Assembly (NCBI GenBank): GCA_036732755.1
Contig: DAINBU010000006.1
Coordinates: 26,688 to 86,768, forward strand
Source of the DNA: Planctomycetota bacterium
GTDB taxonomy: Bacteria; Planctomycetota; B15-G4; SIAN01
Length of the DNA stretch: 60,081 nucleotides
Direction: 5' to 3'
The position numbers and the translations under genes are program-made. Numbering within the stretch: the first letter of the stretch is position 1; each line of letters opens with the position of its first letter. Of the stretch, positions 3,112 through 36,034 are shown piece by piece. Under the pieces are notes generated by a model, which was not told where the DNA came from, ran no database searches, and saw only the letters and a program-made list of their open reading frames with translations.

Positions 3112-3774
3112 TCAGCTCCCGCCGCCGGTCGTCGCGCCGCGGCGGGGCCGACGGACGGCCCGCACCTTTCCGCTGCGTCCGCCTCCGCAGAAGAAGAGGT
3201 CGCCGCCGTCGGACTCGAGGCCGGAGACATTGACGCCGGCCGGCAGGTCGAGCCGCTCGAGGACCTCGCCGTTCTGGGGATCGACGCGCCGCAGCTCGCT
3301 CACGTCGTCTTCCCAGGTGCCGTGCCAGAGCTCGCCGTCGACCCAGGTGACGCCGGTGACGAAGCGGTTCGACTCGATCGTCTTGAGGATCGCGCCCGTC
3401 TCCGGATCGACCTGGTGGATCTTGCGGCTCTGGTACTGCCCCACCCAGAGCGAGCCTTCGGCCCACGCGAGGCCCGAGTCGTTGCCGCTGCCGCCGGGCG
3501 CCGGAATCGTGGCGACCACGCGGCCCGTCGCCGGATCGATCTTCTGGATGCGACCGGCAGCGATCTGGAACAGGTGGCGGCCGTCGTAGGCCGTGCCCGC
3601 GTCCGCCGCCACGTCGATCGAGCGCTCGAGCTTCCCGCTCGCGGGATCGAAGGCGTTCAGCTTCTTCCCGGACGCGAACCAGACGTTGCGACCGTCGTGC
3701 GTGACTCCGTGCACCTGGTCGCGGTCGGGAAAGGGTCCGTACTCCCGCACGATTTCGGCGGCGGCTCGACGCAT
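3112..3774 (-). CDS. Glutamine cyclotransferase-like beta-propeller protein
   Basis: A 220-aa ORF with repeated W/G-containing blades (GRNVWFASGKKLNAFDP, GLAWAEGSLWVGQY, VTGVTWVDGELWHGTWEDD) typical of bacterial/plant-type glutaminyl-peptide cyclotransferase. I assigned it by family memory only. Confidence 0.5.
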   Translation of the reverse strand: MRRAAAEIVREYGPFPDRDQVHGVTHDGRNVWFASGKKLNAFDPASGKLERSIDVAADAGTAYDGRHLFQIAAGRIQKIDPATGRVVATIPAPGGSGNDSGLAWAEGSLWVGQYQSRKIHQVDPETGAILKTIESNRFVTGVTWVDGELWHGTWEDDVSELRRVDPQNGEVLERLDLPAGVNVSGLESDGGDLFFCGGGRSGKVRAVRRPRRGATTGGGS

Positions 3775-3783
3775 GGCCCCACC

Positions 3784-5004
3784 TTAATCCGCCGGCCGCG
3801 ACGCGGGGAGCAACAAGGTCGTCGCGAATCCCGGCACGGGGGGCATCAGCCACCGCCGCGCCCGCCCGCGGCCGAACGACTGCACCTTGCCCGCGGCCGC
3901 GAGCGGGTCGAGCGCGCGCTGCACGGTGCGCTGGCTCGTGCCGAGCACGAGCGCCAGCGCCGAGCTCGACCACGACTCCCCGTCGGCGAGCAGGGCGAGC
4001 ACGTGCGCGTGCTCCTCCTCGACCGGTCGCGCCAGAACGACGACTTCACGGGCATTTCGCGGCGCGAGCGCGAAGCCCCGCTTCGTCGCGCTCACGACGG
4101 CGAGCCTGCGCAGCGCCGCGCGCAGCCGCCCCATCTCGACGCGCAGCCGCGCGCGATGCGAGGCGTCGACGAACTTCGAAGCGAAAACGCGCGCCACGAG
4201 CACGTCCCTCGGCACGTCGCCCGGCCACGCCTCCCCCAGCGCGCGCGCGAGCGCGAAGAGGACGGGACGCGTGGCGAGCGCGGCCATCTGGACGTCGTCG
4301 TGCACGACGTTGCGGCACGCGTCCACGACGAGCACCTTCGAGGAGCGCAGCGCCTCGACCTCTTCGAGGGAGAGGAGCCGCTCGCCGCCGCGCGCGATCC
4401 GGCGCGCCGCGGGTGCGTCGAGGACGCGCCGCGCGCTCTCCACTTCCGCCGTCAACGCCGGGATTCGCGCGAGCTCGGCGGCGCGCCGGGCCCGGGCGAG
4501 CGCGGCGCGCGCCGCCTTCGTCCGCGGGCGGCGCAGCGCGATCCCGGCGACCACGAGCTCGTACGCGGTCCGCGACGCGGGCGGGAGGGCGGCGGGGTCG
4601 AGCCGGGCGAGCGCGCGCTCCGCCTCGTCGACGCGCCCGATCAGGAGGAGGCGGCGCGCCTCGAGGTACCGCGCGAAGGCGGCATTGACCCGGTCGCCGT
4701 GCTCCTCGAGCGTCGCGCGCGCCGTGTCGAGCGCCGCCGAGGGACGTCCGAGGTCGCGCAGGACGAGCGCGATCTCGGCGTCGGCGACGACGCAGCGCGC
4801 CCGCGCCAGCGACTCGCCCGGACCGAAGGCGCGCGCGGCGCTCTTGAGGAGGACCTTCGCGCGCGCGAGATCGCCGAGCTGCGCCATCGCGATGCCGCGC
4901 AGCGCGAGCGCCGGCGCGTCGTCGCGCAACGCGATCCGCTTCAGCGCGCCGAGCGGATCGCCCCCCGCCAGCGCTCGCGCGGCGGCGGCGATCGGCGCGT
5001 CCAT
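3784..5004 (-). CDS. Transcriptional regulator with a C-terminal helix-turn-helix
   Basis: The internal start MDAPIAAAARALAGG lies at 5004. Upstream of it the ORF overlaps the DUF899 gene on the other strand. The body is Ala/Arg-rich with TPR-like helices. The C-terminus has an HTH-like segment (LALVLGTSQRTVQRALDPLAAAGKV). It is divergent from the DUF899/DUF2182 pair. Confidence 0.5.
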   Translation of the reverse strand: MDAPIAAAARALAGGDPLGALKRIALRDDAPALALRGIAMAQLGDLARAKVLLKSAARAFGPGESLARARCVVADAEIALVLRDLGRPSAALDTARATLEEHGDRVNAAFARYLEARRLLLIGRVDEAERALARLDPAALPPASRTAYELVVAGIALRRPRTKAARAALARARRAAELARIPALTAEVESARRVLDAPAARRIARGGERLLSLEEVEALRSSKVLVVDACRNVVHDDVQMAALATRPVLFALARALGEAWPGDVPRDVLVARVFASKFVDASHRARLRVEMGRLRAALRRLAVVSATKRGFALAPRNAREVVVLARPVEEEHAHVLALLADGESWSSSALALVLGTSQRTVQRALDPLAAAGKVQSFGRGRARRWLMPPVPGFATTLLLPASRPAD

Positions 5005-7475: not shown

Positions 7476-8009
7476 TCACTTCTCGACGTCGTTCCCTTCG
7501 AAGAGGGTGATCACGCGGTTCTCGAGACTGCCCGGCCGCTGGAGGTGGACCGAGGCGGTGAGGCGCAGGGCGTCCTTGGGACCCGTGAAGCTCAGGACGA
7601 CGCTCTCGAGGAAGCGCTGGCCGACTTCGAGCTCGGGCAGCAGGCCCGGGAAATGGGCCGAATCGACGGGGAGCTCGACGGTTCCGAGCGGCGGAATCGA
7701 GACGCCGACGAGGTCGCTGTCGTGAGCAAGGACTTCGGAGAGCCCGTTCGGGCCCATCGCGAGGACGTCGCCGAGGACGAGCGTCCGCGTCATGCTCTTG
7801 TTGACGAGGAAGAGCGTCGTGTTGGTCTCGTCGTGGTTGCCGTCCAGGTCGATGTACTGGGCGCGGACCTGCATGGTGTGCCCGTTGCCGTGGTCGGCGG
7901 GGGCCGCGGCCGCTGCCGCGCTCGCTCCCTGCGTGTGGCTCAGGAGGGCCGAAGATCCGACGAAGAGCACGGGGAGAAGCACGAAGAGCAGCGCGCGCCG
8001 TCGGGTCAT
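7476..8009 (-). CDS. Hypothetical secreted protein
   Basis: A 177-aa ORF with a clear signal peptide (MTRRRALLFVLLPVLFVGSSALLSHTQGASAAAAA). The mature part has mixed composition. I recognise no family. Confidence 0.5.
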   Translation of the reverse strand: MTRRRALLFVLLPVLFVGSSALLSHTQGASAAAAAAPADHGNGHTMQVRAQYIDLDGNHDETNTTLFLVNKSMTRTLVLGDVLAMGPNGLSEVLAHDSDLVGVSIPPLGTVELPVDSAHFPGLLPELEVGQRFLESVVLSFTGPKDALRLTASVHLQRPGSLENRVITLFEGNDVEK

Positions 8010-8142
8010 GGTCGCCTCCGGGGAGTGGAACGAGAGGGGATCGAGGTTCCGGGCACGCTCGGACTCGCGAGCGCTTGCGACGGATCATTCCCGCGCGCGG
8101 CGGACTTGACGAGGGGTTCGTGCGCGCGGATCGAGGACCCGG

Positions 8143-9399
8143 TCAGCGCAGCCCGAACGGGATCAGCCAGCGCCGATCGGCGCCGGCGCGCGTGAGCAGG
8201 ATCGACAGCACGCCCGGCGCGCCCGTGAGCAGCGACCGGTCGGCGCCCATTCCTTCCACATAAGAGAGGTTGCGGAGCAGCAGCTCTTCCAGGAGCCTCG
8301 CCTTCCGCGCGGCTGCGGGAAGACCCGCACTCCGTTCAAAAGCGTCCGCGAGCGCGAGCATCCCCGCGATCCCGTGGCAGAGGCCGATCTGCTCCGGAAC
8401 GTCCGCCGCGCGATCGACGCCGGGCTCGACGCGCTCGCACCACGACTCCATCGCCGCGAGCGCGAACGTCGTGACGTCGCTCCTGCCGAGGACGCGCCCG
8501 CTCTCCCACAGCGCCCACGCGATGCCCGGCGTCCCGTAGCACCACGCCTGCGGCGACGGCGCCCGCGAGCTCGGCGCGTCGCCGTCGAGGCTCGCGTGCG
8601 GCCAGGCCCGCAGGCCGGTCCGGTCGACGTACGACCGGGCGACGAGCCAGTCGGCGATGCGCGCGAGCGCGACCCGGGCCCGCGTCGTCGGTGCGACGCC
8701 GTGCCCGAGCGCCGCCGCGAGCGCGAGCGCCACGCCCGCGACTCCGTGCGCGACGCCGGTATTGATCCGCCCCTCGCCCCACTTCAACCGCGGGTCGTCC
8801 TGGTCGCGGCCGAGCCGGAATGCCGCGAGCTCGTCGTCGCAGAGCGCGAGGAGCTGGCGCACGCACTGCTTCGCCAGCCGGCGCCGCGGCTGCGCGCCCG
8901 GCGCGTCGAGCCGCCCCGATGCGACGAGAGTGAGAAGCAGGCCAGCGGGTCCGCGGACGAGGTCGTAGTCGAACCAGCGGACCTCCTTCGACCGCCAGCA
9001 GTCGCGCGGCAGCGCCTCCGCGATCTGCTCCCACAACGACGCACTCACGCGCCGCAGCCGCGGCACGGTGCGCATCGCGAATGCGAGCCCCGACAGCGGA
9101 CCGGTCGGACCAAATTCGAGCGCGCCGGACCGGAGCGCCTCGCTCAGCCGCTCGAGCCAGCGCTCGACCACGCGCTCGTGGACGGGACCGCCGAAGCGTC
9201 CGGCGGCGAGCGCGGCGAGCACGAGCGGGCCGGGATCGCAGGTACCGCTCGACGGCTCGAGCTTCCCCTCGCCGTCTCCGTCGCCGGCGCAACGGTCGAG
9301 CGTCCGCCGGACGAGCGAACGCAGATCGCGATCAGGACGGTCGCGCCGCGGAGCGGCCCTCGTGACCGCAGCGGCCCCTCGCGCAGCGCGACCGTTCAT
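8143..9399 (-). CDS. lanC: LanC-like lanthionine cyclase (standalone)
   Basis: A 418-aa ORF carrying the three LanC zinc/catalytic motifs in order: GVAHGVAGVALALA (GxAHG), WCYGTPGIAWAL (WCxG), and GLCHGIAGMLALA (CHG). It begins 7 nt after the stop of precursor gene 1. Confidence 0.8.
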   Translation of the reverse strand: MNGRAARGAAAVTRAAPRRDRPDRDLRSLVRRTLDRCAGDGDGEGKLEPSSGTCDPGPLVLAALAAGRFGGPVHERVVERWLERLSEALRSGALEFGPTGPLSGLAFAMRTVPRLRRVSASLWEQIAEALPRDCWRSKEVRWFDYDLVRGPAGLLLTLVASGRLDAPGAQPRRRLAKQCVRQLLALCDDELAAFRLGRDQDDPRLKWGEGRINTGVAHGVAGVALALAAALGHGVAPTTRARVALARIADWLVARSYVDRTGLRAWPHASLDGDAPSSRAPSPQAWCYGTPGIAWALWESGRVLGRSDVTTFALAAMESWCERVEPGVDRAADVPEQIGLCHGIAGMLALADAFERSAGLPAAARKARLLEELLLRNLSYVEGMGADRSLLTGAPGVLSILLTRAGADRRWLIPFGLR

Positions 9400-9406
9400 C
9401 CGCGGC

Positions 9407-9586
9407 TCAGTAGCCGTGGCAGTGGCCGCTGGGCCCGCAGAAGAAGTAGGTACTGCCGCAGTTTTGCGTCCCCTTGCCGCCCTTCGCCGGGGCGATCCGC
9501 TCTTCGAGCTTCTCGATGAGGAAGCGCTTCCGTTTCACGACGTCGTCGGACTTCGGAGCTGGGGCACGGATGTTCTTCGAGGACAT
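9407..9586 (-). CDS. Lanthipeptide precursor peptide 1 (59 aa)
   Basis: The internal start MSSKNIRAPAPKSDDVVKRKRFLIEKLEERIAPAKGGKG forms the leader. The core is TQNCGSTYFFCGPSGHCHGY (3 Cys, 4 Ser/Thr, C-terminal Tyr). The conserved 5'UTR CCCGAAGGGAGAAC-GACATG is shared with the other two copies. The 93-aa ORF upstream of this ATG is a frame extension. Confidence 0.75.
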   Translation of the reverse strand: MSSKNIRAPAPKSDDVVKRKRFLIEKLEERIAPAKGGKGTQNCGSTYFFCGPSGHCHGY

Positions 9587-9759
9587 GTCGGTTCTCCCTT
9601 CGGGTTTCGGGCAGCGACTCGGCGAGGGAGACGACACTGCCCGCTCCGATCGAAGGTCGATTCGCCGCCGCGGGCCGGAACGGATCACGACGGTCGCGCC
9701 GCGGAGCCGTCCTCACGACTGGAGCGGCCCCTCGCGCGGCGCGACCGTTCTTTCGCGAC

Positions 9760-9936
9760 TCAGTAGGCGCTGCCGCCTCCGCTGAACGACGTGCAGTTGG
9801 CGGTCCCGCAGTTGTTCGTCCCCTTGCCGCCCTTCTTCGGGGCGATCCGCTCCTCGAGCTTCTCGATGCGGAAGCGCTTCGGCTTCACGACGTCGTCGGA
9901 CTTCGGCGCCGGGACACGGACGTTCTTCGCGGACAT
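9760..9936 (-). CDS. Lanthipeptide precursor peptide 2 (58 aa; absent from the ORF track because it is under 60 aa)
   Basis: I translated it by hand from the minus strand: MSAKNVRVPAPKSDDVVKPKRFRIEKLEERIAPKKGGKG-TNNCGTANCTSFSGGGSAY. The ATG is the reverse complement of 9934-9936 and the TGA is the reverse complement of 9760-9762. It shares the leader and RBS with copies 1 and 3. Confidence 0.75.
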   Translation of the reverse strand: MSAKNVRVPAPKSDDVVKPKRFRIEKLEERIAPKKGGKGTNNCGTANCTSFSGGGSAY

Positions 9937-10051
9937 GTCAGTTCTCCCTTCGGGTTTCGGGCAGCGACTCGCCAGGGGAGACGCAACCGCCCCGTCCGAT
10001 CGAACGGCGACGCGCCGCCGCGGGGCCGCGCCCCCGCGGCCGACCGCGGCG

Positions 10052-11119
10052 TCAGTGCGCGAGCTCCCGCGCCGACCGGAGCCACCCGGCCCACGCCGAA
10101 TGGGGCACGGCGAGCCACGGCAGGAAGCCGTTCGCCTCGTCGTGGGCGGCGAGCTCGGTCGCGGCGCGGCAGCTGAGCCCGGCGACGAAGCCGGTGTAGA
10201 GCGCCTGCAGGACGCCCGAGAGCGGGAAGATCGCGTTGCCGCACGCCCAGATCCCCGCGACGCTCGTGCGCCCCCATGCGTCGGTCACGACGTAGCCGTC
10301 GCGGCAGCGGATCTTCGTCCCGCGCACGAGACGCGCCGCGTTCTGCGGGCGGAGCTTGTAGGTGTTGTAATCGAAGACGACGGCGGCGTAGTCGGCGTGC
10401 ACGCCCGCCTCGCCCGAGTTCCAGCGCGAGCGCGCCAGCGCCTGCGTGGAGCGGCGCAGCGCCGCGGCGTGCGAGCCGTCGCCCGCGCCGAGCCGGCGGT
10501 CGAGCGCGCCCGCGCTCCCGTTCCCGCCGTCGTCGAGCGCCGTCTCGATCGCGAGCGCGCGCGTCGCGGCGCGGAAGCGCTCCGCGGTCGCCTCGACCGC
10601 CGGATGGCAGCCGGCGATCAGCAGCCGCTTGCGATGCAGCGTCCCGTCCGCAGCCAGTTGCTCGGCACGTTGAATGAACGCCTGCTGGCCCGGCAGCGTC
10701 TCCGCCATGAAGATCGCGTTGCGGAAGCGCAGGAAGCGCAGGTGGGAGAAGATGCCGCAGGCGACGACCACCGCCGGCGCGCGGAACGTCCCGCCCGCCG
10801 TGTCGACCGCGAAGCGGCCGCGCTCGCGGCGGATGCGCGTGGCGGCGACGCCGGAGCGCACCTCGACCGGCAGGTCGCGCAGCTGGTCGAGCAGCATCAC
10901 CTTGAGCTGCCCGCCCTTGATGATCCAGCCGTTGGTGAGGGTGAGCGTCCCGTACGCGGCGATCCCGCCGGGCCGCACGTGCTCCTCGAGGACGAGCACG
11001 CGGCCGAACCGGCTCGGCGGCGTCGACCACCACGGCGTCCCCTGCGACGCGGTGAGCGCGGCCATGAGGCCCGACGGCCCCGCCCCGATCACGATCACGT
11101 CGTGGCTCGACTCGCCCAT
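10052..11119 (-). CDS. FAD/NAD(P)-binding pyridine-nucleotide-disulfide oxidoreductase (thioredoxin-reductase-like flavoprotein)
   Basis: The internal start MGESSHDVIVIGAGPSGL gives an N-terminal GxGxxG dinucleotide fold. A second flavin motif is GIWACGNAIF. It starts 12 nt after the kinase stop and lies directly upstream of precursor 2 on the same strand. Confidence 0.65.
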   Translation of the reverse strand: MGESSHDVIVIGAGPSGLMAALTASQGTPWWSTPPSRFGRVLVLEEHVRPGGIAAYGTLTLTNGWIIKGGQLKVMLLDQLRDLPVEVRSGVAATRIRRERGRFAVDTAGGTFRAPAVVVACGIFSHLRFLRFRNAIFMAETLPGQQAFIQRAEQLAADGTLHRKRLLIAGCHPAVEATAERFRAATRALAIETALDDGGNGSAGALDRRLGAGDGSHAAALRRSTQALARSRWNSGEAGVHADYAAVVFDYNTYKLRPQNAARLVRGTKIRCRDGYVVTDAWGRTSVAGIWACGNAIFPLSGVLQALYTGFVAGLSCRAATELAAHDEANGFLPWLAVPHSAWAGWLRSARELAH

Positions 11120-11130
11120 CGGGGGCGCCC

Positions 11131-14100
11131 TCACTTCGGCGGGATCGCTTTCTCGACGTCGACCCACAGCTTCTTCCACGCCTCACGCTCGCCCGCGGGC
11201 AGCGCGGCGACCTCGTCGCGGACGCTCTTGAAGTCGGCGTCCTCCTTCCAATCCGCGAGCTTGTCCACCTTGCCGGCCGCCAGGCGCGCCGCGAGGTCGG
11301 CGCGCAGCCACTGCAGCGCGCGCCCACGCCACGCGGCGGCGTCCGGCGCCCCGCTCGCCGCGGCCAGGACGGCGGTGCACGCGGCGTTGTAGCGGTGCGA
11401 GCGGTCGAGGTCGTTCGCGAGCGACGCGTCGCTCGCGAGCGCCTTCTCGAAGAAGCGCGCCGCTTCGAGGAAGCGCTGCTTCCCGTAGAGGATGAGCGCG
11501 TACTCGAGGCGCTCCCCTTCATTGCCCGGCGCCGCCGCGCCTTTCACCACGTCCTCGAGGCGATCCTCGAACGCGATCTGCTTCTCGACCGTCGCGATCC
11601 TCTCGGCCGATTTCGCCCTCCAGCCCGGTTGCCTCGACCCGAGCTCGTGCCCCGTCTTCAGGTAGGGCAGCGCCTCGCGGTAGCGCTTCTGCATGTGGTA
11701 GAGCTGCCCGAGCAGGTAGTGCGCCTCCGCCATGCCGGGCTCGGCGTCGATCGCCGCTTTGCAGTGCGCCTCGCATTCCGCGTCGTTCTTCCCGTCGCCG
11801 TAGAGCGTCATGGCGAGGTTGCAGTGCGCGGGTGCGTTGCCCGGGTCGATCCGGATCGCGTCGTGATAGGCGGCGAGCACTTGCGCGAGTTCCTTCTTCT
11901 CGTCGAGCGCGCTGCCGAGCGAGTTGTAGGCGAGCGCCAGGGTGGTCGCGTCGTGCCTCTGCCGATCGTCGCGCTGCTCCACGACGACCGGCACCCGGTC
12001 CCGCAGGAGATCGATTGCGATGTGGAACTCCGCGATGCCGCGGGCGGGCTCGCCCTTGTGGCAGAAGGTGATGCCGAGGTTCAAGTGCGCCTCGGGCTTG
12101 TCAGGCTCGAGGTCGAGCGCCTTGGTCAGCGCCGTGATCGCGGCGTCGGTCCGTCTCGCGTCGTTGTTCGCGCGGCCGAGCTCGGTCCACGCGTCGGCGT
12201 AGTCGTCGCGGACCCGGACCGCCGCCTCGTACGCCTCGATCTCCCGGGCGCGGTCGCCCTTCATCACGTAGGCGCGTGCCTTCATGCGGAGCGCCTCGGC
12301 GAAGTCGGGTTTCACCGCCACCGCCGCGTCGAACGCCGCGATCGCGCGGTCCGGATCGCGCAGCGCAAGGAATGACGCGCCGATCTCGTAGTGCGAGTTG
12401 GCGAACTGGGGGTCGATCTTCAGCGCCTCCTGGAACGACGCGATCGCCTCGCGGTGCTTTCTCAACTTGGCGAGCACCTGGCCGAGGGAGTGGCGCCCCC
12501 GGGCGTAGTTCGGCTTGATCCGGATCACTTCCAGGTAGGCGTCGTGCGCCCCTGCGTAGTCGCCTTTGTCGCGCAGCGCGTTCCCGAGCCCGCCCCACAG
12601 GTCGGCGTCGTCCCGCCCGAATTCGAGCGCCGCGCGGCTCGTCTTGATCGCCTCGTCGAGCTCGCCGTGATCGGCGAGCGCGGAGGCGAGGTTGATGTAG
12701 GCGTGCTGGAAGCCGGGCTCGAGCTCGATCGCATGCTCGTACTCGCGGATCGCGTTCTCCCACTCCTTCATCGCGGTGTAGACGCAACCGAGGTTGAAGC
12801 GGGCGCGCGCGCTCTTCGGGGCGAGGCGGATCCCCTCGTTCGCCGCCGCCAGCGACTCCTCGAGCTTGCCCTGGAGCGCCAGCGCGATGGCGAGGTTGCC
12901 GTGCGCCTGGGTGAGCGTCGCCTCGAGCTCGATCGCCTTGCGGTACGCCGCGATCGCGTCGTCGAGGCGCCCCGCCTCCCTCAGCGCGAGGCCGCGGTTC
13001 ACGTGCGCACGCGCCGCGCCGGGATCGAGCTCGACGCCGCGGTCGTGCGATCGCACCGCCTCGCCGATCCGGCCGAGCGACACGAAGATCATCCCGCGCG
13101 CCGTCCAGGCCCACGCGTAGCTCGGGTCGACGGCGATGGCGCGCTCGTAGGCCACGAGCGCCTCCTCGAGCTTGCCCATCCCCGCCAGCACGTCGCCCTT
13201 CCCGCAGAAGCAGTTGGGGAGGTCGGGGTCGAGCTGGCACGCCGTCTCGTACTCGGCCAGCGCGTCCTGCGCCTTGCCCATGTCGGCGAGGACGTTCGCG
13301 CGATAGGTGTGGAAGGGGGCGCTCTTCCCGTCGAGCTCGAGCGCGCGGTCGTGCGCGACGAGCGCTGCGTCGAGGCGGCCGACGTCCTTCAGGACGCAGC
13401 CGCGGAAGGAGTACGCCTCCGCGAGGTCGGGCTTGGCCGTGCACGCGGCCTCGATCGCCGCGAGCGCGTCGTCGTACTTCTGCTCGTGCCAGAGCATGTG
13501 GCCGCGCTGCATGTGCGCCCAGGCGTCGGACGCCGCCCGAGCGATCCGGCCGTCGAGCAGCGCGATCGCGTCGTCGTAACGCTGCAGCGCGTGCAGGATC
13601 GTCACGCGCGTGCCGATCGACGCGGCGTCGTCGAAGTTGCGCTCGTGGAAGCGCAGCGCCGCCTCGAGCAGGCGCCGGCGCGCCGGCCGCGGGGGCGCGA
13701 GGTCGGCCATGCCGGAGATGCCGATCTCGACCAGGAACTTGTCGACCGCGGAGCGCGCGAGGAGGAGGTTGTCCTTGGCGCGGTCGAGCGCGGCCTGCGT
13801 CTGGCGCTGCTCCTTCCCGACGCGGAAGAGGTCGACGGCGAGCGCGACCAGCCCGAGCAGCAGCACGACGAAGGCGGCGGTCACGAAGCCCTTGTGGCGC
13901 CGGACCCACTTCGACGCGCGCGCCGCGACGGACGGCCGGCGCGCCAGGATCGGCTGGTCCTTGAGGTAGCGGCCGAGGTCCTCCGCCATCTCGAGCGCGG
14001 TCGAGTAGCGCGAGGAGGGGTCCTTCGACATCGCCTTCAGGACGATCGTCTCGAGGTCGACGGGGAGCGCGTCGTTCCACCGGCGCGGCGCGACCGGCTC

Positions 14101-15048
14101 CTTCTCCGCGATGTCGCGCATCACGGCCTGCGGGTCGTCGCCGGGGAAGGCGTGCTCGAGGGTCAGGAGCTCGTAGAGCGTCACGCCGAGCGAGTAGACG
14201 TCGGTGCGGTGGTCCATCGGCGCCCGCTTCGCGAGCGTCTGCTCCGGGCTCATGTAGCGGTACGTGCCGAGCAGCTCGCCCGTGACCGTGAGGTCGCCGT
14301 CGCGGAGCGTGCGCGCGAGCCCGAAGTCGGTGATCCAGAGCTCGCCCAGCGAATCGACCAGCAGGTTGCCCGGCTTCACGTCGCGGTGGACGACGCCGAG
14401 CTGGTGGGCGTGGTCGAGCGCCTCGGCGGCCTGCATGCCGAGCGCGACGGCCATCCGCACGTAGCCGGGGTCGCGGTTGGAGCCGTGCGACGTGGCCGGC
14501 GTCTTCGGCTCGGTGGCCGGCGCGCGCCCCTTCATTTCGCGGATCACGGCGGCGAGGCTCTGCCCCTCGACGAGCTGCATGGCGTAGTAGTGCACGCCGC
14601 GCTCGCAGCCGACCGCGAAGACCGGGACGATGTGGGGATGGTGGAGGTGCGCCGCGGCGAGCGCCTCGTTCTTGAAGCGCTGCAGCTGCTTGGGGTCGAG
14701 CACGGCCGCGAATGGCAGCACCTTGAGCGCGACGCGCCGCCCGAGCGAGACCTGCTCCGCCTCGTAGACGACTGCCATGCCGCCGCGGCCGACCTCGCGC
14801 ACCAGCCGGAAGTCGCCGAGGAGCTGGCGCTCGGCGAGCTCGCCCCCCTCCTTCGGAGCGTGCGGCATCTCGCGCGTCGCCCGGTGGATGAACTCGAGCC
14901 CGTCGAGGGCGGCGGCGAGCTCGGCGGCGCACTGCGGATGCTGCGCGAGCAGCTCTTCGCGCGGCGGCGCGCCACCCTGCTCGAGCGCGCGCAGGTAGGC
15001 GTCGAGGATCGCGCCGACGTTGCCGGCGCCCGTGGCGGTATCGCTCAT
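11131..15048 (-). CDS. Ser/Thr protein kinase with a long TPR-repeat C-terminal region (1305 aa)
   Basis: The real start is MSDTATGAGNVGAILDAY at 15048; the upstream 500 aa of the 1823-aa ORF is shadow. Hanks kinase motifs are present: GRGGMAVVYEA..ALKVL, HRDVKPGNLLVD, DFGLART, YMSPEQ. A TM segment (FVTAAFVVLLLGLVALAV) is followed by about 20 TPR repeats. The start overlaps the ECF sigma stop by ATGA. Confidence 0.8.
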   Translation of the reverse strand: MSDTATGAGNVGAILDAYLRALEQGGAPPREELLAQHPQCAAELAAALDGLEFIHRATREMPHAPKEGGELAERQLLGDFRLVREVGRGGMAVVYEAEQVSLGRRVALKVLPFAAVLDPKQLQRFKNEALAAAHLHHPHIVPVFAVGCERGVHYYAMQLVEGQSLAAVIREMKGRAPATEPKTPATSHGSNRDPGYVRMAVALGMQAAEALDHAHQLGVVHRDVKPGNLLVDSLGELWITDFGLARTLRDGDLTVTGELLGTYRYMSPEQTLAKRAPMDHRTDVYSLGVTLYELLTLEHAFPGDDPQAVMRDIAEKEPVAPRRWNDALPVDLETIVLKAMSKDPSSRYSTALEMAEDLGRYLKDQPILARRPSVAARASKWVRRHKGFVTAAFVVLLLGLVALAVDLFRVGKEQRQTQAALDRAKDNLLLARSAVDKFLVEIGISGMADLAPPRPARRRLLEAALRFHERNFDDAASIGTRVTILHALQRYDDAIALLDGRIARAASDAWAHMQRGHMLWHEQKYDDALAAIEAACTAKPDLAEAYSFRGCVLKDVGRLDAALVAHDRALELDGKSAPFHTYRANVLADMGKAQDALAEYETACQLDPDLPNCFCGKGDVLAGMGKLEEALVAYERAIAVDPSYAWAWTARGMIFVSLGRIGEAVRSHDRGVELDPGAARAHVNRGLALREAGRLDDAIAAYRKAIELEATLTQAHGNLAIALALQGKLEESLAAANEGIRLAPKSARARFNLGCVYTAMKEWENAIREYEHAIELEPGFQHAYINLASALADHGELDEAIKTSRAALEFGRDDADLWGGLGNALRDKGDYAGAHDAYLEVIRIKPNYARGRHSLGQVLAKLRKHREAIASFQEALKIDPQFANSHYEIGASFLALRDPDRAIAAFDAAVAVKPDFAEALRMKARAYVMKGDRAREIEAYEAAVRVRDDYADAWTELGRANNDARRTDAAITALTKALDLEPDKPEAHLNLGITFCHKGEPARGIAEFHIAIDLLRDRVPVVVEQRDDRQRHDATTLALAYNSLGSALDEKKELAQVLAAYHDAIRIDPGNAPAHCNLAMTLYGDGKNDAECEAHCKAAIDAEPGMAEAHYLLGQLYHMQKRYREALPYLKTGHELGSRQPGWRAKSAERIATVEKQIAFEDRLEDVVKGAAAPGNEGERLEYALILYGKQRFLEAARFFEKALASDASLANDLDRSHRYNAACTAVLAAASGAPDAAAWRGRALQWLRADLAARLAAGKVDKLADWKEDADFKSVRDEVAALPAGEREAWKKLWVDVEKAIPPK

Positions 15049-15695
15049 GGCATCCGCTCCTTCAGGATCCTGCCGACGCGCACGAGCGCCCGCGTCCACA
15101 GCATGCGCGCCGCGTCCGGCGAGCGGCCGGTGAGCGCCGCGATCTCCTTCCACTCGAGCTCGCGCAGGTTGCGGAGCACCAGCACCTCGCGGTCCTCGGG
15201 AGCGAGGTCGGCGAGCGCATCGGCGAGGATCACGCCGCGCTCGCGCCGCTGGGCCGACTGGCTCGGCGACCGTCCCTGCGCCTCCACCAGCTCGCGCAGC
15301 ATCTGCGACGAGCGATCGGCCTGCGACTCGAGCGACCGCTCGCGCTCGACGCGGCGCCCCTGCAGCGAGTAGCGCCGCCGCAGGTCGGCGAGGTTGTTCA
15401 CGAGGATCTGCCGGATCCACGTGATCCACTCCTGCTCGGTCGTGCCGCGGAACTTCGGGAAGTTCTGGTGCGCCTTGAGCAGCGTCTCCTGCACCAGGTC
15501 GGAGGCGTCGGCCTTGCCCTGGACGTTCCGATCGAGGCTCGTGACGGCGATGAGCCGCAGGTAGTTGCGGTACGCCTTGAGCAGTTCGCCGAGCGCCTCG
15601 GAACCGCCCGCGCGCGCGCGCCGGATGCACTCGGAGACGCTCGCCGACGAGTCGTCGATCACGGCCGATCCGTCCGGGCGTCGGGATCGTGGCAT
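15045..15695 (-). CDS. ECF (sigma-70 family, group IV) RNA polymerase sigma factor
   Basis: The internal start MPRSRRPDG lies at 15695. Region 2 (SDLVQETLLKAHQNFPKFRG) and region 4 (ILADALADLAPEDREVLVLRNLRELEWKEIAALTG) are recognisable. The stop is ATGA-coupled to the kinase gene. Confidence 0.7.
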   Translation of the reverse strand: MPRSRRPDGSAVIDDSSASVSECIRRARAGGSEALGELLKAYRNYLRLIAVTSLDRNVQGKADASDLVQETLLKAHQNFPKFRGTTEQEWITWIRQILVNNLADLRRRYSLQGRRVERERSLESQADRSSQMLRELVEAQGRSPSQSAQRRERGVILADALADLAPEDREVLVLRNLRELEWKEIAALTGRSPDAARMLWTRALVRVGRILKERMP

Positions 15696-15840
15696 GAGGA
15701 TCGGAGCATAGTCCGGCGCCGCCCCCGCGTCGGGGGTCGGTCGGTCCGCGTCGGCGGCGGCTCGCTCGTCCACATGGGAGAAGGACGATTCCGCCGCGGG
15801 CGATCGAACGTTCCGCGACGCGAACAAAAGGCGGCGTTCG

Positions 15841-16794
15841 ATGCGCCGGCGCGATGGCGTCCTTCTGCCACGACCCGGAGGCGGAACTCCGGGCGTCCGG
15901 GGGGTGACCTTGCAAGCGGACGTCGTCGCGCGGACGAAGCTGCCCCGCCTCGCCGACCGGCTCGCGCTCGGGAGCGGCGGGCTGCGCGTCAGCCCCTGCT
16001 GCGTCGGGATGGTCGAGGACCCGGCGACGATCGCGGCCGCCTTCGACCTCGGCGTGAACTTCTTCTTCGTCAGCTCCGACATGCACTGGCCGCTCTACGA
16101 GGCGGCGCGGCGCGGCCTCGAGCGGCTCCTCGCGCGCGGCGGCGCCGTCCGCGACGAGATCGTCGTCGCCGGCGTCTGCTACCCGACGCAGCCCGAGTTC
16201 TGCAGCTTCCCGTTCCGCGAGCTGGTCGACGCGGTGCCGGGGCTGGGGCGGCTCGACGTGCTGCTCGCGGGCGGCGCCTACGGCTCCGAGGTGGGCACGC
16301 GGCTCCCCGTCTACGAGCGCCATCGCGAGGAGCGCTTCCTCGGCAACCGCGCGATCGGCGTCACCTTCCACGACCGTGTGGCGGCGGCGACGGCGCTGCA
16401 GCGCGGCGGGCTCGACATCGCCTTCGTCCGCTACAACGCCGACCACGCCGGCGCGCGCGACGACCTCTTCCCGCACGTGCCCGAGCGGCCGCGGCCGCTC
16501 CTCTTCAACTTCAAGAGCACGTCGGGCTTCGTGCCGCCCGTCCGCATGGCGGAGATCGGACTCGTCGCGCCCGACTACTGGCAGCCGGAGGTCACCGACC
16601 ACTACCGGTTCGCCTTCACGCGCCCGCAGCTCGACGGCCTGCTCGTCTCGCCGCGCACGCCGCGCGAGGTCGAGGGGATCGCCGCGGCGCTCGCGCGCGG
16701 CCCGCTGACCGACGAGGAGGAGACCTACCTGATCGACGTCGCCGCGGTGGCCCGCGGCGCTGCCCGAGTCCGACCCGAAGGAGAAACGACATGA
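15841..16794 (+). CDS. Oxidoreductase-like protein (possible aldo/keto-reductase-like TIM barrel), translationally coupled to precursor 3
   Basis: A 317-aa ORF divergent from the ECF sigma gene. The alternative GTG at 15906 is also possible. The family assignment is weak (LGSGGLRVSPCCVGMV, FFFVSSDMHWPLYE). Its stop overlaps the precursor-3 ATG (ATGA at 16791-16794). Confidence 0.4.
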   Translation: MRRRDGVLLPRPGGGTPGVRGVTLQADVVARTKLPRLADRLALGSGGLRVSPCCVGMVEDPATIAAAFDLGVNFFFVSSDMHWPLYEAARRGLERLLARGGAVRDEIVVAGVCYPTQPEFCSFPFRELVDAVPGLGRLDVLLAGGAYGSEVGTRLPVYERHREERFLGNRAIGVTFHDRVAAATALQRGGLDIAFVRYNADHAGARDDLFPHVPERPRPLLFNFKSTSGFVPPVRMAEIGLVAPDYWQPEVTDHYRFAFTRPQLDGLLVSPRTPREVEGIAAALARGPLTDEEETYLIDVAAVARGAARVRPEGETT

Positions 16795-16982
16795 GCTCGA
16801 AGAACGTCCGTCCCGAGACGAACCGCAAGCCCGATCCCGACGCCGCGACGCCGCGCAAGCGCTTCCGCATCGAGAAGCTCGAGGAGCGCATCGCCCCCAA
16901 GAAGGGCGGCAAGGGGACGAACAACTGCAGTGGCAGCGCCGGAACCAGCAGCGGCACCTTCAGCTGCGGCTCCATCTACTAG
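16791..16982 (+). CDS. Lanthipeptide precursor peptide 3 (63 aa)
   Basis: Sequence: MSSKNVRPETNRKPDPDAATPRKRFRIEKLEERIAPKKGGKG-TNNCSGSAGTSSGTFSCGSIY. The RBS is GAAGGAGAAACGAC-ATG. It shares the leader, the GG box and the C-terminal Tyr with copies 1 and 2. It lies immediately upstream of lanB. Confidence 0.75.
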   Translation: MSSKNVRPETNRKPDPDAATPRKRFRIEKLEERIAPKKGGKGTNNCSGSAGTSSGTFSCGSIY

Positions 16983-17049
16983 GCCGGAACGGTCGTCGAG
17001 ACATTTCGATGACCCGGGGGCGAAGGCGCCTGAGGGAGGAGAGAGAGTC

Positions 17050-20000
17050 TTGAGCTCGCCGCCTCCCACCGCCTTCGCCCCGTCCGGCTTCTTCGTCCTG
17101 CGCGCGCCGGCGCTGCCGTTCGCGGCGTTCGCGGGCGGCGAATCGGGCGAAGCGCCTCGCGAAAAGCTGCGCCGCCTCGTCGAGCGGCCCGACGTCCGCG
17201 AGGCGCTCTTCGTCGCCTCGCCCGACCTCGACGCGCGCCTCGAGACCTGGCGCAACGCCCCCGACTCGGAGGACGGCGCGCGCATCGAGCTGTCGCTCTG
17301 GCGCTACCTCGCGCGCATGGCCGGACGCGCGACGCCGTTCGGCCTGTTCGGGAGCTGCTCGCTCGGCGCGATCGGCGCGACGACTCATCTCGTCCTGGGC
17401 GATCGAATGCGCCGCCACACGCGGCTCGACATGGACTACGTCGTGCTGCTGGCCGACGCGCTCGCGCGCGACTCGGCGCTGCGGCCGCGGCTGCGCTTCC
17501 GTCCCAACTCGAGCCTCTACCGCGTCGGAGAGCGCTGGCGCTACCACGAGGTCCGGCGCGAGGCGAAGGGATGGGCGCACCGGCGCTGCGCCCTCGAGGC
17601 AGCCGACTACCTCGATCTGGTGCTCGCGCGGGCGCGCGGCGGCGCGACGATCGGCGAGCTCGTGGCCACGCTGCGCGAGCGCGACGCCGATGCGACCGAA
17701 GCTGAAACCGCGGAGTACGTCGACGCGCTGATCGACCAGCAGGTGCTCGTCTCCGAGCTCGTTCCGGCGATCACCGGAGACGAGCCGATCCACGACTGGA
17801 TCGCGCGGCTGCGCGCGACCGAGGGCGGCGCGGCCGCCGCCGAGCGGCTCGAAGCGGTCCGCGACGAGCTCGCCCGCTTCGACGCGGGCGGCCCGGGCGT
17901 CGCGCCCCCGCGCTACCGCGCGCTCGCCGCCGAGCTCGCCGCGCTGCCGGCGGAGGTCGACGTCGCGCGCACGTTCCAGGTCGACCTGTCGCGGCCGGCG
18001 CCCGACGCGGCGCTCGGGAGCGCCGTCGTCGAAGAGCTCCTGCGCGGCGTCGAGCTGCTGCGGAGGATCGCGCCGCGCCGCAACGACTCGCTCGCGAACT
18101 TCCGCCGCGCCTTCGGCGAGCGATTCGGCGACACGCCGGTGACGCGCGAGGTGCCGCTCTCCGAGGCGCTCGACGACGAGACGGGCGTGGGAGACGGCGG
18201 AACCGACGAGGTCGTGAGCGCGGCGCCGATCCTCGACGGCCTCGAGCTCGCCGCGGCCGAGGCGCCCGCGTCGTTCGGTGCGCGCGAGCGCCACCTCCTC
18301 GAGCGCGTGACCGCCCTGTTGCAGCGCGGCGCGACCGAATGGTCGCTCAGCGACGACGACGTGGAGAAGCTCGCCGTCGACGACCCGCCGCCGCTGCCCG
18401 ACGCCTTCGCCGCGCACGCGCGCATCGAGGCCTGGTCGGCCGAGGCGGTCGACCGCGGCGAATTCCGGCTGCTGCTCCAGGGCGCGAGCGGGCCGTCGGG
18501 CGCGCGCCTCCTCGGCCGTTTTGGCCACGCCGACCCTGAGCTCGCGGACGCGGTCGCGGGCCATCTGCGGGCCGAGGAGGCGCTGCGGCCCGACGCGCTC
18601 TTCGCGGAGATCGTCCATCTGCCCGAAGGACGCGTCGGCAACATCCTCGCGCGGCCGACCCATCGCCGCCACGAGATCCCCTACCTCGGCCGCTCCGGTC
18701 TGCCCGAGTCGAACCAGATCGAGCTCGGCGATCTGCTCGTCTCGGTACGCGGCGAGCGCGTCGTCCTGCGTTCGGCGCGGCACGGCTGCGAGGTGCTGCC
18801 GCGCCTCACCACGGCGCACAACTACACGGCGCAGCCCGGCGTCTACCGGTTCCTCTGCGGGCTGCAGGAGCAGGGGGTCGCCGGTGCTCTCGCGTGGAGC
18901 TGGGGCGCGCTCGCGAACTCGGCCTTCCTGCCACGCGTCACCTGCGGCCGTCTCGTGCTCGCGCGCGCACAGTGGCGCGTCGCGCGCGAGGAGACGGTGC
19001 GACTGCTCGAGGCCTGCGCGTCCGGTCGCGCCGCGGCGCTCGCCGCCTGGAGAGCGGAGCGCCGCCTCCCGCGCTGGGTCTGCCTGACCGAAGGCGACCA
19101 CGAGCTCCCGATCGACCTCGACGAGCCGGCGCTCGTCGCCACGCTGCTCGCGCAGATGCGCAGCGACGCGACGCTGACCGAGCTCTTCCCCGCGCCCGAC
19201 CGCCTCTGCGTCGCGGGACCGGAGGGGCGCCACGTCCACGAGATCCTCGTCCCGTTCGTGCGGTGCGCCGGCGCCGAAGCGCCGCGCCGCGTTCGTCCGT
19301 CGCCGCCGATGTCGAATGCCGCGCCGGCGGCCGCGGCCGCGCGCCGCTTCGTGCCCGGTTCCGAGTGGCTGACGGTCAAACTCTACGGCGGCGCGCTCGC
19401 GGTCGACGACCTGGTGCGCACGACGGTCGGGCCGCTCGCCGTCGAATGGGCCGCCGAAGGCGTCGCGCAGCGCTGGCATTTCGTCCGCTACGCCGATCCG
19501 CACGGCCACCTGCGGCTGCGCTTCGAGGGCGAGGCGCGCCGCCTCGAGCAGGAGCTCCTGCCGCGGCTGCGCAGAGCGGTCGCCCCGCTGCTCGATGCGG
19601 GCCGCCTCTGGAAGCTCCAGCTCGATACGTACGAACGCGAGATCGAGCGCTACGGCGGGCCGGAGGGGATCGTGCACTGCGAGGAGCTCTTCCACCGCGA
19701 CAGCGAGGCGATCGTCGAGCTCCTGCGCGACGCTCCGACCGAGGGCGACGGCGACCGCCGCTGGCGGCTCGCGCTGCTCGGCATGGACCGCCTCCTCGAC
19801 GACGTCGGACTCGATCTCGAGACGAAGCGCCGCACGCTGCTGCGGGCGCGCGACGCGTTCCACAAGGAGTTCAAGGCGAGCGACGCGGTCGCGCGGCAGA
19901 TCGGCGCGAAGTGGCGCGTCGAGTCGGCGGCGGTCGCGCGGCTGCTCGCCCCGGACGGCGACGAGGAGGACGCGTGGTCGCCGGCGCGCGCGGCGTTCGG

Positions 20001-20247
20001 GCGCCGGTCGGAGCGGAGCGCGGCCGCGCGCGCGGCGCTGCAGCGCGCGGCGGCGGACGGGAGCCTCGCCGCGCCGCTCGAGGAGATCGCGGCGGCGCTC
20101 CTCCACATGCACTGCAACCGGCTGCTGCGCGCGGCGGCGCGCACGCACGAGCTCGTGCTCTACGACTTCCTCCACCGCCACTACAAGGGACGCGTCGCGC
20201 GCGCCGCGAGCGAGCGGCGCAACGCGTCCGACGTCTACGTCGCGTAG
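17050..20247 (+). CDS. lanB: LanB-type lanthipeptide dehydratase, full length (N-terminal glutamylation domain plus C-terminal SpaB_C elimination domain)
   Basis: The N-terminal hallmark is GFFVLRAPALPF followed by LWRYLARMAGRATPFGLFG. The C-terminal elimination-domain signature is WLTVKLYGG...RWHFVRYADPHGHLRLRF...LDTYEREIERYGG. The in-frame TTG at 17050 is preceded by GGGAGGAGAGAGAGTC. The alternative ATG at 16930 would overlap precursor 3. Confidence 0.8.
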   Translation: MSSPPPTAFAPSGFFVLRAPALPFAAFAGGESGEAPREKLRRLVERPDVREALFVASPDLDARLETWRNAPDSEDGARIELSLWRYLARMAGRATPFGLFGSCSLGAIGATTHLVLGDRMRRHTRLDMDYVVLLADALARDSALRPRLRFRPNSSLYRVGERWRYHEVRREAKGWAHRRCALEAADYLDLVLARARGGATIGELVATLRERDADATEAETAEYVDALIDQQVLVSELVPAITGDEPIHDWIARLRATEGGAAAAERLEAVRDELARFDAGGPGVAPPRYRALAAELAALPAEVDVARTFQVDLSRPAPDAALGSAVVEELLRGVELLRRIAPRRNDSLANFRRAFGERFGDTPVTREVPLSEALDDETGVGDGGTDEVVSAAPILDGLELAAAEAPASFGARERHLLERVTALLQRGATEWSLSDDDVEKLAVDDPPPLPDAFAAHARIEAWSAEAVDRGEFRLLLQGASGPSGARLLGRFGHADPELADAVAGHLRAEEALRPDALFAEIVHLPEGRVGNILARPTHRRHEIPYLGRSGLPESNQIELGDLLVSVRGERVVLRSARHGCEVLPRLTTAHNYTAQPGVYRFLCGLQEQGVAGALAWSWGALANSAFLPRVTCGRLVLARAQWRVAREETVRLLEACASGRAAALAAWRAERRLPRWVCLTEGDHELPIDLDEPALVATLLAQMRSDATLTELFPAPDRLCVAGPEGRHVHEILVPFVRCAGAEAPRRVRPSPPMSNAAPAAAAARRFVPGSEWLTVKLYGGALAVDDLVRTTVGPLAVEWAAEGVAQRWHFVRYADPHGHLRLRFEGEARRLEQELLPRLRRAVAPLLDAGRLWKLQLDTYEREIERYGGPEGIVHCEELFHRDSEAIVELLRDAPTEGDGDRRWRLALLGMDRLLDDVGLDLETKRRTLLRARDAFHKEFKASDAVARQIGAKWRVESAAVARLLAPDGDEEDAWSPARAAFGRRSERSAAARAALQRAAADGSLAAPLEEIAAALLHMHCNRLLRAAARTHELVLYDFLHRHYKGRVARAASERRNASDVYVA

Positions 20248-21779: not shown

Positions 21780-22007
21780 GGGGGAGAAGACGCCGCGCGC
21801 CCCGGGGAGCGAACGGCGGATGTTCGACCGGCGGGGGCGATGGCGTCTCTCTCCCGGGCCGCCCCGGCGCAGCCCGGCAGCAACGGAGGCGTCATGGCGC
21901 GATGGTTCGAGTTCACCGACCGGATGCGGCCGCGCCGCCTCGCGCTCCTGCGCATCACCTACCTGATCGGCGTGCCGGCGCGCACGCCGCAGAACTGAGG
22001 CGCGCCC

Positions 22008-35770: not shown

Positions 35771-36034
35771 TCATCCAGTGACTGCCAGTTTCTCGGCCGC
35801 CGGCGGCGACCGCCAGTGCGTCGCGCAAAACCTCTCCATCGCTCGGACGCGTCGGTCGACCCGCCATTCCGAAACGGCCAGGACGAGGAGTCCGATCGGC
35901 ATCGAAACGCCGAGCAGGATCGCCATCCCCGTCCCGATCCCGGCCTTGGTCGCGATTCGAATGAATACGAACCGTGCTACAGCCGTCGTCACGAACGACG
36001 TGACAGGCACGACGAGCGCGTGATCCCAGTTCAT
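35771..36034 (-). CDS. Small membrane protein (hypothetical, 87 aa)
   Basis: The start is MNWDHALVVPVTSFVTTAVARFVFIRIA. It has two hydrophobic helices. It is lower-GC, on the same strand as its neighbours, and separated from them by short gaps. Confidence 0.35.
   Translation of the reverse strand: MNWDHALVVPVTSFVTTAVARFVFIRIATKAGIGTGMAILLGVSMPIGLLVLAVSEWRVDRRVRAMERFCATHWRSPPAAEKLAVTG

Follow-up and report, generated by a model that had tools for sequence, protein, structure and literature searches.

A tandem array of precursor genes beside lanC

This report concerns a short tandem repeat in a lanthipeptide gene cluster of a Planctomycetota bacterium (contig DAINBU010000006.1), which we analysed within a stretch of 60,081 nucleotides (nt), referred to below as the window. 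The repeat carries two genes for small precursor peptides, lies directly upstream of the gene for a LanC-like cyclase, lanC, and contains after each precursor gene a sequence that folds into a long RNA hairpin. We consider it likely that the 350-353-bp repeat is a duplicated, self-contained precursor expression cassette made up of promoter, untranslated region (UTR), open reading frame (ORF) and 3' hairpin, in which the hairpin is an old conserved 3' element. The features of the repeat and of lanC are listed below in window coordinates.

8143..9399 (-), lanC, LanC-like cyclase, 418 aa as an ORF (Pfam LANC_like PF05147, 1.6e-21)
9322..9674 (-), proximal unit of the repeat (cassette A), with promoter-like motif, 5'UTR, precursor A and a 3' hairpin overlapping lanC codons 1-26 (direct repeats and unit alignment)
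9337..9395 (-), proximal copy of the RNA hairpin that follows the precursor, now lanC codons 2-21 (minimum free energy, MFE, -56.3 kcal/mol; z -3.7)
9407..9586 (-), precursor A, 59 aa, MSSKNIRAPAPKSDDVVKRKRFLIEKLEERIAPAKGGKGTQNCGSTYFFCGPSGHCHGY (ORF; P0059 on 29 contigs; leader-sharing precursor family)
9629..9654 (-), promoter-like motif TTCGAT-N15-CGTCT of cassette A (window motif scan; boxes identical to those of cassette B)
9675..10024 (-), distal unit of the repeat (cassette B), with promoter-like motif, 5'UTR, precursor B, 3' hairpin and junction (direct repeats and unit alignment)
9690..9748 (-), distal post-precursor RNA hairpin (MFE -52.5 kcal/mol; z -3.0; covariance model 91 bits; orthologous copies in relatives L014, L009 and L092)
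9760..9936 (-), precursor B, 58 aa, MSAKNVRVPAPKSDDVVKPKRFRIEKLEERIAPKKGGKGTNNCGTANCTSFSGGGSAY (ORF; exact protein P0063 on 21 contigs; leader-sharing precursor family)
9979..10004 (-), promoter-like motif TTCGAT-N15-CGTCT of cassette B (window motif scan; conserved in relatives)

Read 5' to 3' on the minus strand, the order is the stop codon of an oxidoreductase gene (10052), unit B (10024..9675), unit A (9674..9322) and the remainder of lanC (to 8143). A repeat search returned two gapless families of direct repeats, one of 230 nt with 87% identity and a spacing of 350 (9445-9674 against 9795-10024) and one of 102 nt with 82% identity and a spacing of 353 (9330-9431 against 9683-9784). The second family covers the self-similarity that a preliminary description of the locus, made from the sequence alone, had proposed to look for between 9681-9760 and 9320-9399. 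Mean identity of the units is 87% in a global MAFFT alignment, with similarity setting in some 35 nt before the promoter-like motif and ending about 15 nt past the hairpin palindrome (~9322/9675). The units share one orientation, a single junction at 9674/9675 and a period of 350-353, and so form a head-to-tail tandem duplication.

Identity between the units varies greatly along their length. On the 5' side it is 100% in the promoter-like boxes, 81% in the whole motif (five differences, all within the N15 spacer), 90% in the 5'UTR and 91% in the leader, while the core peptides have fallen to 62%; the earlier remark that the cores diverged while leader and UTR stayed nearly identical is thus borne out. 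On the 3' side it is 73% in the 11 nt around the lanC ATG, 88% in the hairpin and 53% in the 15 nt after it. The stretch 9759..9683 (-), 3' of precursor B, aligns to the 11 nt after the precursor A stop codon and to lanC codons 1-25, and the lanC ATG (9399-9397) corresponds to AAG (9752-9750) in the distal copy. The unit alignment therefore confirms the reported 80-bp look-alike of the lanC 5' end after the second precursor, with AAG in place of ATG, and the translations quoted for it were correct. A separate palindrome, CCGCGGGG-N6-CCCCGCGG, lies at 10017-10038, 14 nt past the oxidoreductase stop codon, and a further copy of it is found at the junction of both cassettes in L014. Since L014 carries this oxidoreductase-side sequence at its cassette junction, the unit that was originally duplicated was probably longer than the one surviving in the window.

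The two precursors belong to a family of which 30 members were retrieved, with a near-invariant leader (KRFRIEKLEERIAPxKGGKGT) and hypervariable cores that start with T-x-N-C and end in an aromatic residue. None of the Pfam or NCBIfam models matches the precursors. In the cassettes the ORF is preceded by a 5'UTR of about 45 nt with a GGGAG ribosome-binding site.

Related loci were sought in genomes and metagenomes; the search returned mostly actinobacterial LanCs of about 40% identity, which were set aside. Orthologous arrays are present in L009 and L092 (LanC 86-90% identical), where the same distal-type (..TANCTSFS..) and proximal-type (..HCHGY) cores recur, and four-fold degenerate sites differ by 11-20% among the array carriers. 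As the window, L009 and L092 have orthologues of both core types, the duplication of the cassette, as judged from these sequences, is older than the split of the three lineages. An assembly artefact, in which the repeat was collapsed or expanded, had been raised as a concern, and some short-read contigs do break within the array (Logan L002, L004 and L007 start 35 nt before precursor A). The copies are, however, 13-18% diverged with different cores, the identical two-unit array is found in four independent assemblies (JGI 3300012228, JGI 3300011415, ENA ERZ27267676 and ERZ27267629), and diverged relatives carry orthologous arrays, so that this explanation has a negligible chance of being right. 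The array is neither an artefact nor recent.

The number of precursors next to lanC ranges from one to three among relatives, a comparison that the preliminary description had suggested. There is one in L176 and L177, two tightly packed in L179 and L062, two cassettes in the window, L014 and L092, and three in L009 and on the P0003 contig (the P0003 and P0022 contigs were compared by gene maps; on P0003 the three precursors are spaced). The length of the cassette duplication unit across relatives is 340-353 nt. L009 (positions 3280-4000) shows a second mode of expansion, with an ORF-only copy 22 nt after the first ORF, a 190-nt period and a different leader N-terminus. The single-precursor loci L176 and L177 already have the order precursor-hairpin-lanC; the claim that the adjacency of lanA and lanC is older than the duplication therefore holds, for a reason other than the one first given.

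The promoter-like motif also extends beyond the cassettes. In the generalised form TTCGAY-N15-CGTCY it has six exact matches in the window against 0.41 expected, at 9629-9654(-), 9979-10004(-), 15783-15808(-), 15837-15862(+), 21823-21848(+) and 35881-35906(-). There is one in each cassette; the divergent region that separates the gene for an extracytoplasmic function (ECF) sigma factor from an operon of a 296-aa gene, a third precursor and LanB has one on either strand, and two lie elsewhere. In the cassettes and in relatives the motif lies 43-48 nt upstream of the precursor ATG; it precedes precursors in nine relatives, compared with 2 matches in 667 kb of unrelated high-GC loci. A scan for the sigma-70 consensus found no promoter. 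The sigma factor is encoded within the cluster:

15045..15662 (-), ECF sigma factor, 205 aa, Planctomycete-specific subfamily (TIGR02984 195 bits, cut-off 183.75; its own motif upstream at 15783-15808)

A bipartite motif of fixed spacing thus stands upstream of the putative regulon genes and of the sigma gene itself, as expected of an ECF promoter. Because the cluster encodes an ECF sigma factor whose own gene is preceded by the motif, an ECF-dependent promoter in every cassette would be the simplest reading. The motif is a candidate regulon promoter of this sigma factor, the link between the two being suggested by co-occurrence only.

The hairpin downstream of the precursor genes

The hairpin is about 59 nt long and G+C-rich, with a 14-bp outer stem and inner stems, and begins 12-15 nt past the precursor stop codon. 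It is stable, lies directly 3' of the precursor ORF and upstream of an enzyme gene, and shows compensatory change across relatives. To compare its copies we aligned 12 of them, taking both copies from the window, L009 and L092, only the distal one from L014 and the proximal one from each of five outgroups. RNAalifold recovers the hairpin from this alignment, with 97.6% of the cells of the outer stem paired. Four outer-stem pairs have changed on both sides (U-A/C-G at 20-72, C-G/U-A at 25-67, G-C/C-G at 29-63 and, lastly, the terminal pair). Of 500 shuffles, not one reached the paired fraction or the covariation score of the outer stem, and pairing falls to 20-58% when the 3' arm is slid as a control.

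The one-sided changes in the outer stem bear on which molecule the structure is maintained. All 14 lead to G·U or U·G, while the opposite (C·A) pattern is seen in one cell only, and each of the five internal stem substitutions of the close clade turns a C opposite G into U. As G·U pairs exist only on the sense RNA, this bias is the one expected of an RNA on the coding strand, and not of a DNA palindrome. A role of the palindrome as DNA, either as a hotspot of recombination or slippage or as an operator bound by protein, with the position of the repeat end reflecting a part in generating the duplications, is accordingly very improbable. It would fit the repeat boundary lying within about 15 nt of the hairpin 3' end and the variable copy number among close relatives, but in a cruciform or on the opposite strand the 14 wobble cells would become A·C mismatches, the element is always located on the coding strand just past a precursor stop codon, and the 60 kb hold no further copies. 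A dispersed palindrome of the REP or MITE kind was rejected on the same ground, since a search of the window with a covariance model trained on this alignment gave two copies and no more.

Outside its training set the covariance model matches a sequence 3' of the upstream precursor of L018 (28 bits, E 6e-4). A hairpin after an upstream precursor thus exists where it is not lanC coding sequence. In L172, L173 and L174 the last precursor of each group is likewise followed by a hairpin, though of unrelated sequence, as is the LanB-side precursor of the window; precursors packed 16-30 nt apart have no hairpin between them. The hairpin family is clearly under structural selection. An Rfam search of 8000-21000 returned no family for the hairpin. 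Its sole match lies elsewhere, a weak SAM-IV riboswitch hit at 12829-12930(-) inside a kinase gene, which at 24 bits and E 0.92 is below the gathering score and almost certainly due to chance.

The lanC start and the distal hairpin copy

In the window the lanC ATG (9397-9399) lies 7 nt past the stop codon of precursor A, and the stem of the proximal hairpin starts one codon after it, at +4 of the ORF. LanC residues 1-23 (MNGRAARGAAAVTRAAPRRDRPD) are consequently a hairpin-encoded extension, which in an alignment of LanC homologues is specific to the clade, being found only in the closest relatives (86-100% identity). Relatives whose LanC is 51-66% identical mostly start at a methionine aligned with window codon 24, some a few residues upstream; codon 24 in the window is CGC. 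The G+C content of third codon positions in lanC is about 0.65-0.75 in the first ~25 codons compared with about 0.9 downstream. In L015, L018, L176, L177 and L179 (LanC ~60-66% identical) a homologous hairpin lies in a non-coding spacer of 76-125 nt, and LanC begins at an ATG after the hairpin (MKLSAAV.., MTLTAAV.. or MARPAAT..). To judge from these outgroups, the hairpin is ancestrally intergenic, at the 3' end of the precursor gene, and in the window clade the old lanC start has been lost, the ORF now extending upstream through the hairpin to a new ATG.

This changes the meaning of the repeat boundary. The repeat ends within about 0-9 nt of the ancestral lanC start position and is therefore essentially the precursor-lanC spacer and not ancestral lanC coding sequence. 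The preliminary description had defined the duplication unit as the precursor plus the lanC start, which stands insofar as the unit runs past the precursor stop codon into the present lanC codons ~1-25, but that stretch was ancestrally a spacer hairpin. The further claim that the copied piece is a dead fragment or fossil of lanC is not supported as it stands: where LanC is 60-66% identical, relatives have the homologous sequence between genes, so that the coding homology expected of a pseudogene fragment does not extend across the family, and what was copied is a conserved structured RNA 3' of precursor ORFs that is non-coding in the outgroups.

Among proximal copies the pre-hairpin segment containing ATGAAC is nearly invariant (0-1/11 differences), with ATGAAC itself identical in three lineages, and this near-invariance argues that ATG 9399 is a functional start. 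We also asked whether ATG 9399 could be mis-annotated, with LanC starting further downstream as in an NCBI model (P0004) that begins at the equivalent of the GTG of codon 60. This was rejected because the conserved N-terminus shared by all relatives has its homologue in residues 27-59, and because the frame offers no ATG, GTG or TTG between codons 1 and 60. A non-canonical LanC start may nevertheless be used instead of ATG 9399.

The distal copies have changed mainly outside the stem. Between the distal orthologues of the window and L092 the pre-hairpin segment differs at 6/11 positions and the outer stem at 2/28, while 18% of the four-fold sites of lanC differ between these lineages. Four clustered changes separate the distal copy of the window from that of L014, a 99%-identical strain, and both fold stably with their inner stems paired differently. 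The position of the lanC ATG is occupied by ATG in every proximal copy, by AAG (window, L014), ACG (L009) or GCG (L092) in the distal copies, and by ATC, AGC, GTG or GCG in the outgroups. Either three different changes destroyed the ATG or it originated after the duplication, in the proximal copy. The difference between ATG and AAG is thus real, as first described, but its direction as a mutation of ATG to AAG is unproven, and the upstream ATG may have arisen in the proximal copy only.

Taken together, each cassette comprises an ECF-type promoter-like motif, a 5'UTR with a ribosome-binding site, a precursor ORF with conserved leader and variable core, and a long G+C-rich RNA hairpin. By analogy with the inverted repeat between cinA and cinM, the hairpin would most likely act as a transcriptional attenuator and/or stabiliser of the 3' end, leaving precursor mRNA in excess of enzyme mRNA. 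In the window clade LanC translation would probably be coupled to the ribosomes that terminate on the precursor 7 nt upstream, a dependence suggested by the stem starting at +4 of the lanC ORF. The cassettes may have been duplicated by unequal crossing-over or replication slippage. The resemblance of the upstream hairpin to a dead lanC 5' fragment follows from the hairpin doubling as lanC codons 2-21. A more elaborate form of this mechanism can be put forward only tentatively, and we regard it as doubtful as a whole: the lanC start migrated upstream across an attenuator, so that the hairpin is translated as LanC residues 1-21/23 and LanC needs precursor-terminating ribosomes to melt it. One RNA element would then set the precursor:enzyme ratio both transcriptionally and translationally, and would travel in a plug-in promoter-ORF-hairpin cassette that multiplies by unequal crossing-over.

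Several observations weigh against the cassette reading. The covariation leans mostly on the five outgroup sequences. A scan of the coding strand from 9200 to 10200 found no terminator-like site, and the hairpin differs from a canonical intrinsic (Rho-independent) terminator in having no U-tract, its 3' flanks being CCUGAUCGCG and GUGAUCCGUU. Because of this lack the hairpin does not establish classical intrinsic termination, and the classical terminator model was dropped. The repeat may extend 0-9 nt past the ancestral start and so hold a few truly ancestral lanC bases. In the distal copy, the outer stem and inner region differ at 8/59 positions between the window and L092 compared with 2/59 in the proximal copies, L009 has the same loop in its distal and proximal copies, and in strain L012 (LanC 99%; positions 1-620) the distal hairpin is cleanly deleted; all three argue against a strict constraint on this copy, and stem conservation there could partly come from gene conversion off the proximal copy. 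Promoter activity, attenuation and the use of ATG 9399 are moreover all deductions from sequence.

Some of the same points would favour an alternative, in which the distal 80 nt are a functionless, decaying fragment of the lanC start and the unit ended inside lanC by chance, leaving a neutral fossil. The copied piece does correspond to lanC codons 1-25 in the present ORF map and lacks the ATG; the distal copy evolves faster and has been lost in L012; and the duplication is young by the four-fold divergence of its carriers, the 82-88% identity being by itself no proof of constraint. This alternative nevertheless seems unlikely to us. The sequence is non-coding and structurally conserved in the outgroups, with a homologous hairpin after the L018 upstream precursor. 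Decay is concentrated outside the stem, the internal stem changes of the close clade keep their pairing as G·U, and the distal copies of the window and L014 are both stable hairpins in spite of their four clustered changes. Under the cassette reading the distal copy is probably still functional but, as its deletion from L012 suggests, dispensable.

Cluster context and relation to known systems

The remaining genes place the array in a larger cluster:

10052..11179 (-), flavin adenine dinucleotide (FAD)-dependent oxidoreductase (Pyr_redox_2/DAO-like, thioredoxin-reductase-like), immediately upstream of the cassettes
16791..16982 (+), third precursor, also of this leader family, upstream of LanB; a large hairpin of different sequence comes after it at 17016-17081
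17050..20247 (+), LanB dehydratase, class I (Lant_dehydr_N 1.9e-165, Lant_dehydr_C 9e-63)

A LanB-type dehydratase, a stand-alone LanC and precursors with leaders and Ser/Thr/Cys cores beside the enzymes are the hallmarks of a class I lanthipeptide system, and comparison of the LanC with the fused synthetases of classes II-IV gave partial, sub-threshold matches only. Because the window holds LanC, LanB and leader-sharing precursors, and the closest named genome match is a Planctomycetota metagenome-assembled genome, the cluster is by its gene content a Planctomycetota class I (LanB/LanC) lanthipeptide cluster. The FAD oxidoreductase always adjoins the precursor cassettes in relatives, is syntenic where LanC is 60% identical and may be a tailoring enzyme. 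The order kinase-FAD-precursor-LanC is kept in L177 and L179 (60% identical LanC). The third precursor (..TNNCSGSAGTSSGTFSCGSIY) overlaps the end of the 296-aa ORF by 4 nt, and the very stable hairpin at 17016-17081 encloses the predicted LanB start (TTG 17050), a second enzyme start within a post-precursor hairpin.

Directly after the ECF sigma gene lies a gene for a 1305-aa Ser/Thr kinase with many tetratricopeptide repeats (TPR), the pair being located within 11131-15662(-), where it separates the LanC half of the cluster from the LanB half. The kinase was set aside as a lanthipeptide-modifying (class III-V-like) enzyme in view of its pairing with an ECF sigma factor and the presence of LanB; sigma factor and kinase are probably a regulatory module and not a peptide-modifying one. 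Two conserved ORFs that flank cluster genes, 7476-8009(-) (177 aa) and 15904-16794(+) (296 aa), had no Pfam or NCBIfam match, and the 177-aa gene follows lanC in all close relatives. The regulatory genes resemble the ECF sigma/Ser-Thr kinase modules of Planctomycetes, with a TIGR02984 sigma factor beside the 1305-aa kinase-TPR protein and a CGTC-type downstream box before the sigma gene and the cluster operons. The textbook -35 box of ECF promoters is of the GGAAC type; the upstream box in the window is TTCGAT, which sets it apart from those modules.

The inverted repeat between cinA and cinM of the cinnamycin cluster is an attenuator, established by S1 mapping, that sets the stoichiometry of precursor and enzyme (PMC5408092). 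The window hairpin is similar in being a stable inverted repeat right after the precursor ORF and before a modifying-enzyme gene, with an expected excess of precursor mRNA. It differs from attenuators of the cinA-cinM type in its unusual length (~59 nt), in having no U-tract and in occurring once per cassette, and in the window clade it is overprinted by the first 21 lanC codons; its role in the window is inferred.

The prochlorosins, said to have been described by Li et al. 2010, are reportedly lanthipeptides with multiple precursors. Unlike other multi-precursor lanthipeptide clusters, the window cluster is of class I with separate LanB and LanC, belongs to Planctomycetota, and has its precursors split into a LanC-side array and a LanB-side gene. 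Its duplication unit also differs in being the whole promoter-to-hairpin cassette (340-353 nt), with the ORF-only mode of L009 (190-nt period) in addition. Paralogous precursors with near-identical leaders, hypervariable cores and one enzyme set are a likeness to multi-precursor lanthipeptide clusters in general (PMC7113386). Imperfect terminators placed behind precursor genes, and the use of multiple precursor genes, are both common strategies in clusters for peptides that are made on ribosomes and modified after translation (RiPPs; PMC7113386); a further paper, PMC11251773, contains nothing on precursor gene duplication.

Precursor amplification and attenuator hairpins after precursor genes are therefore known phenomena, of which the window is a well-preserved but ordinary example, the growth of lanC over the hairpin being a modest twist. 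None of the findings overturns current understanding. For annotation they show that what looks like the dead 5' end of a gene can be a conserved regulatory RNA element, only recently overgrown by the ORF next to it, which is of importance where repeats are used as 'fossils' in dating gene order. For genome mining, the cassette signature, consisting of the TTCGAT-N15-CGTCT motif, the KRFRIEKLEERIAP leader and the 3' hairpin, flags precursors of less than 60 aa that belong to an uncharacterised Planctomycetota class I lanthipeptide family and are invisible to Pfam and NCBIfam. The natural series of alleles with one, two and three cassettes provides material for studying how the precursor repertoire of this family expands.

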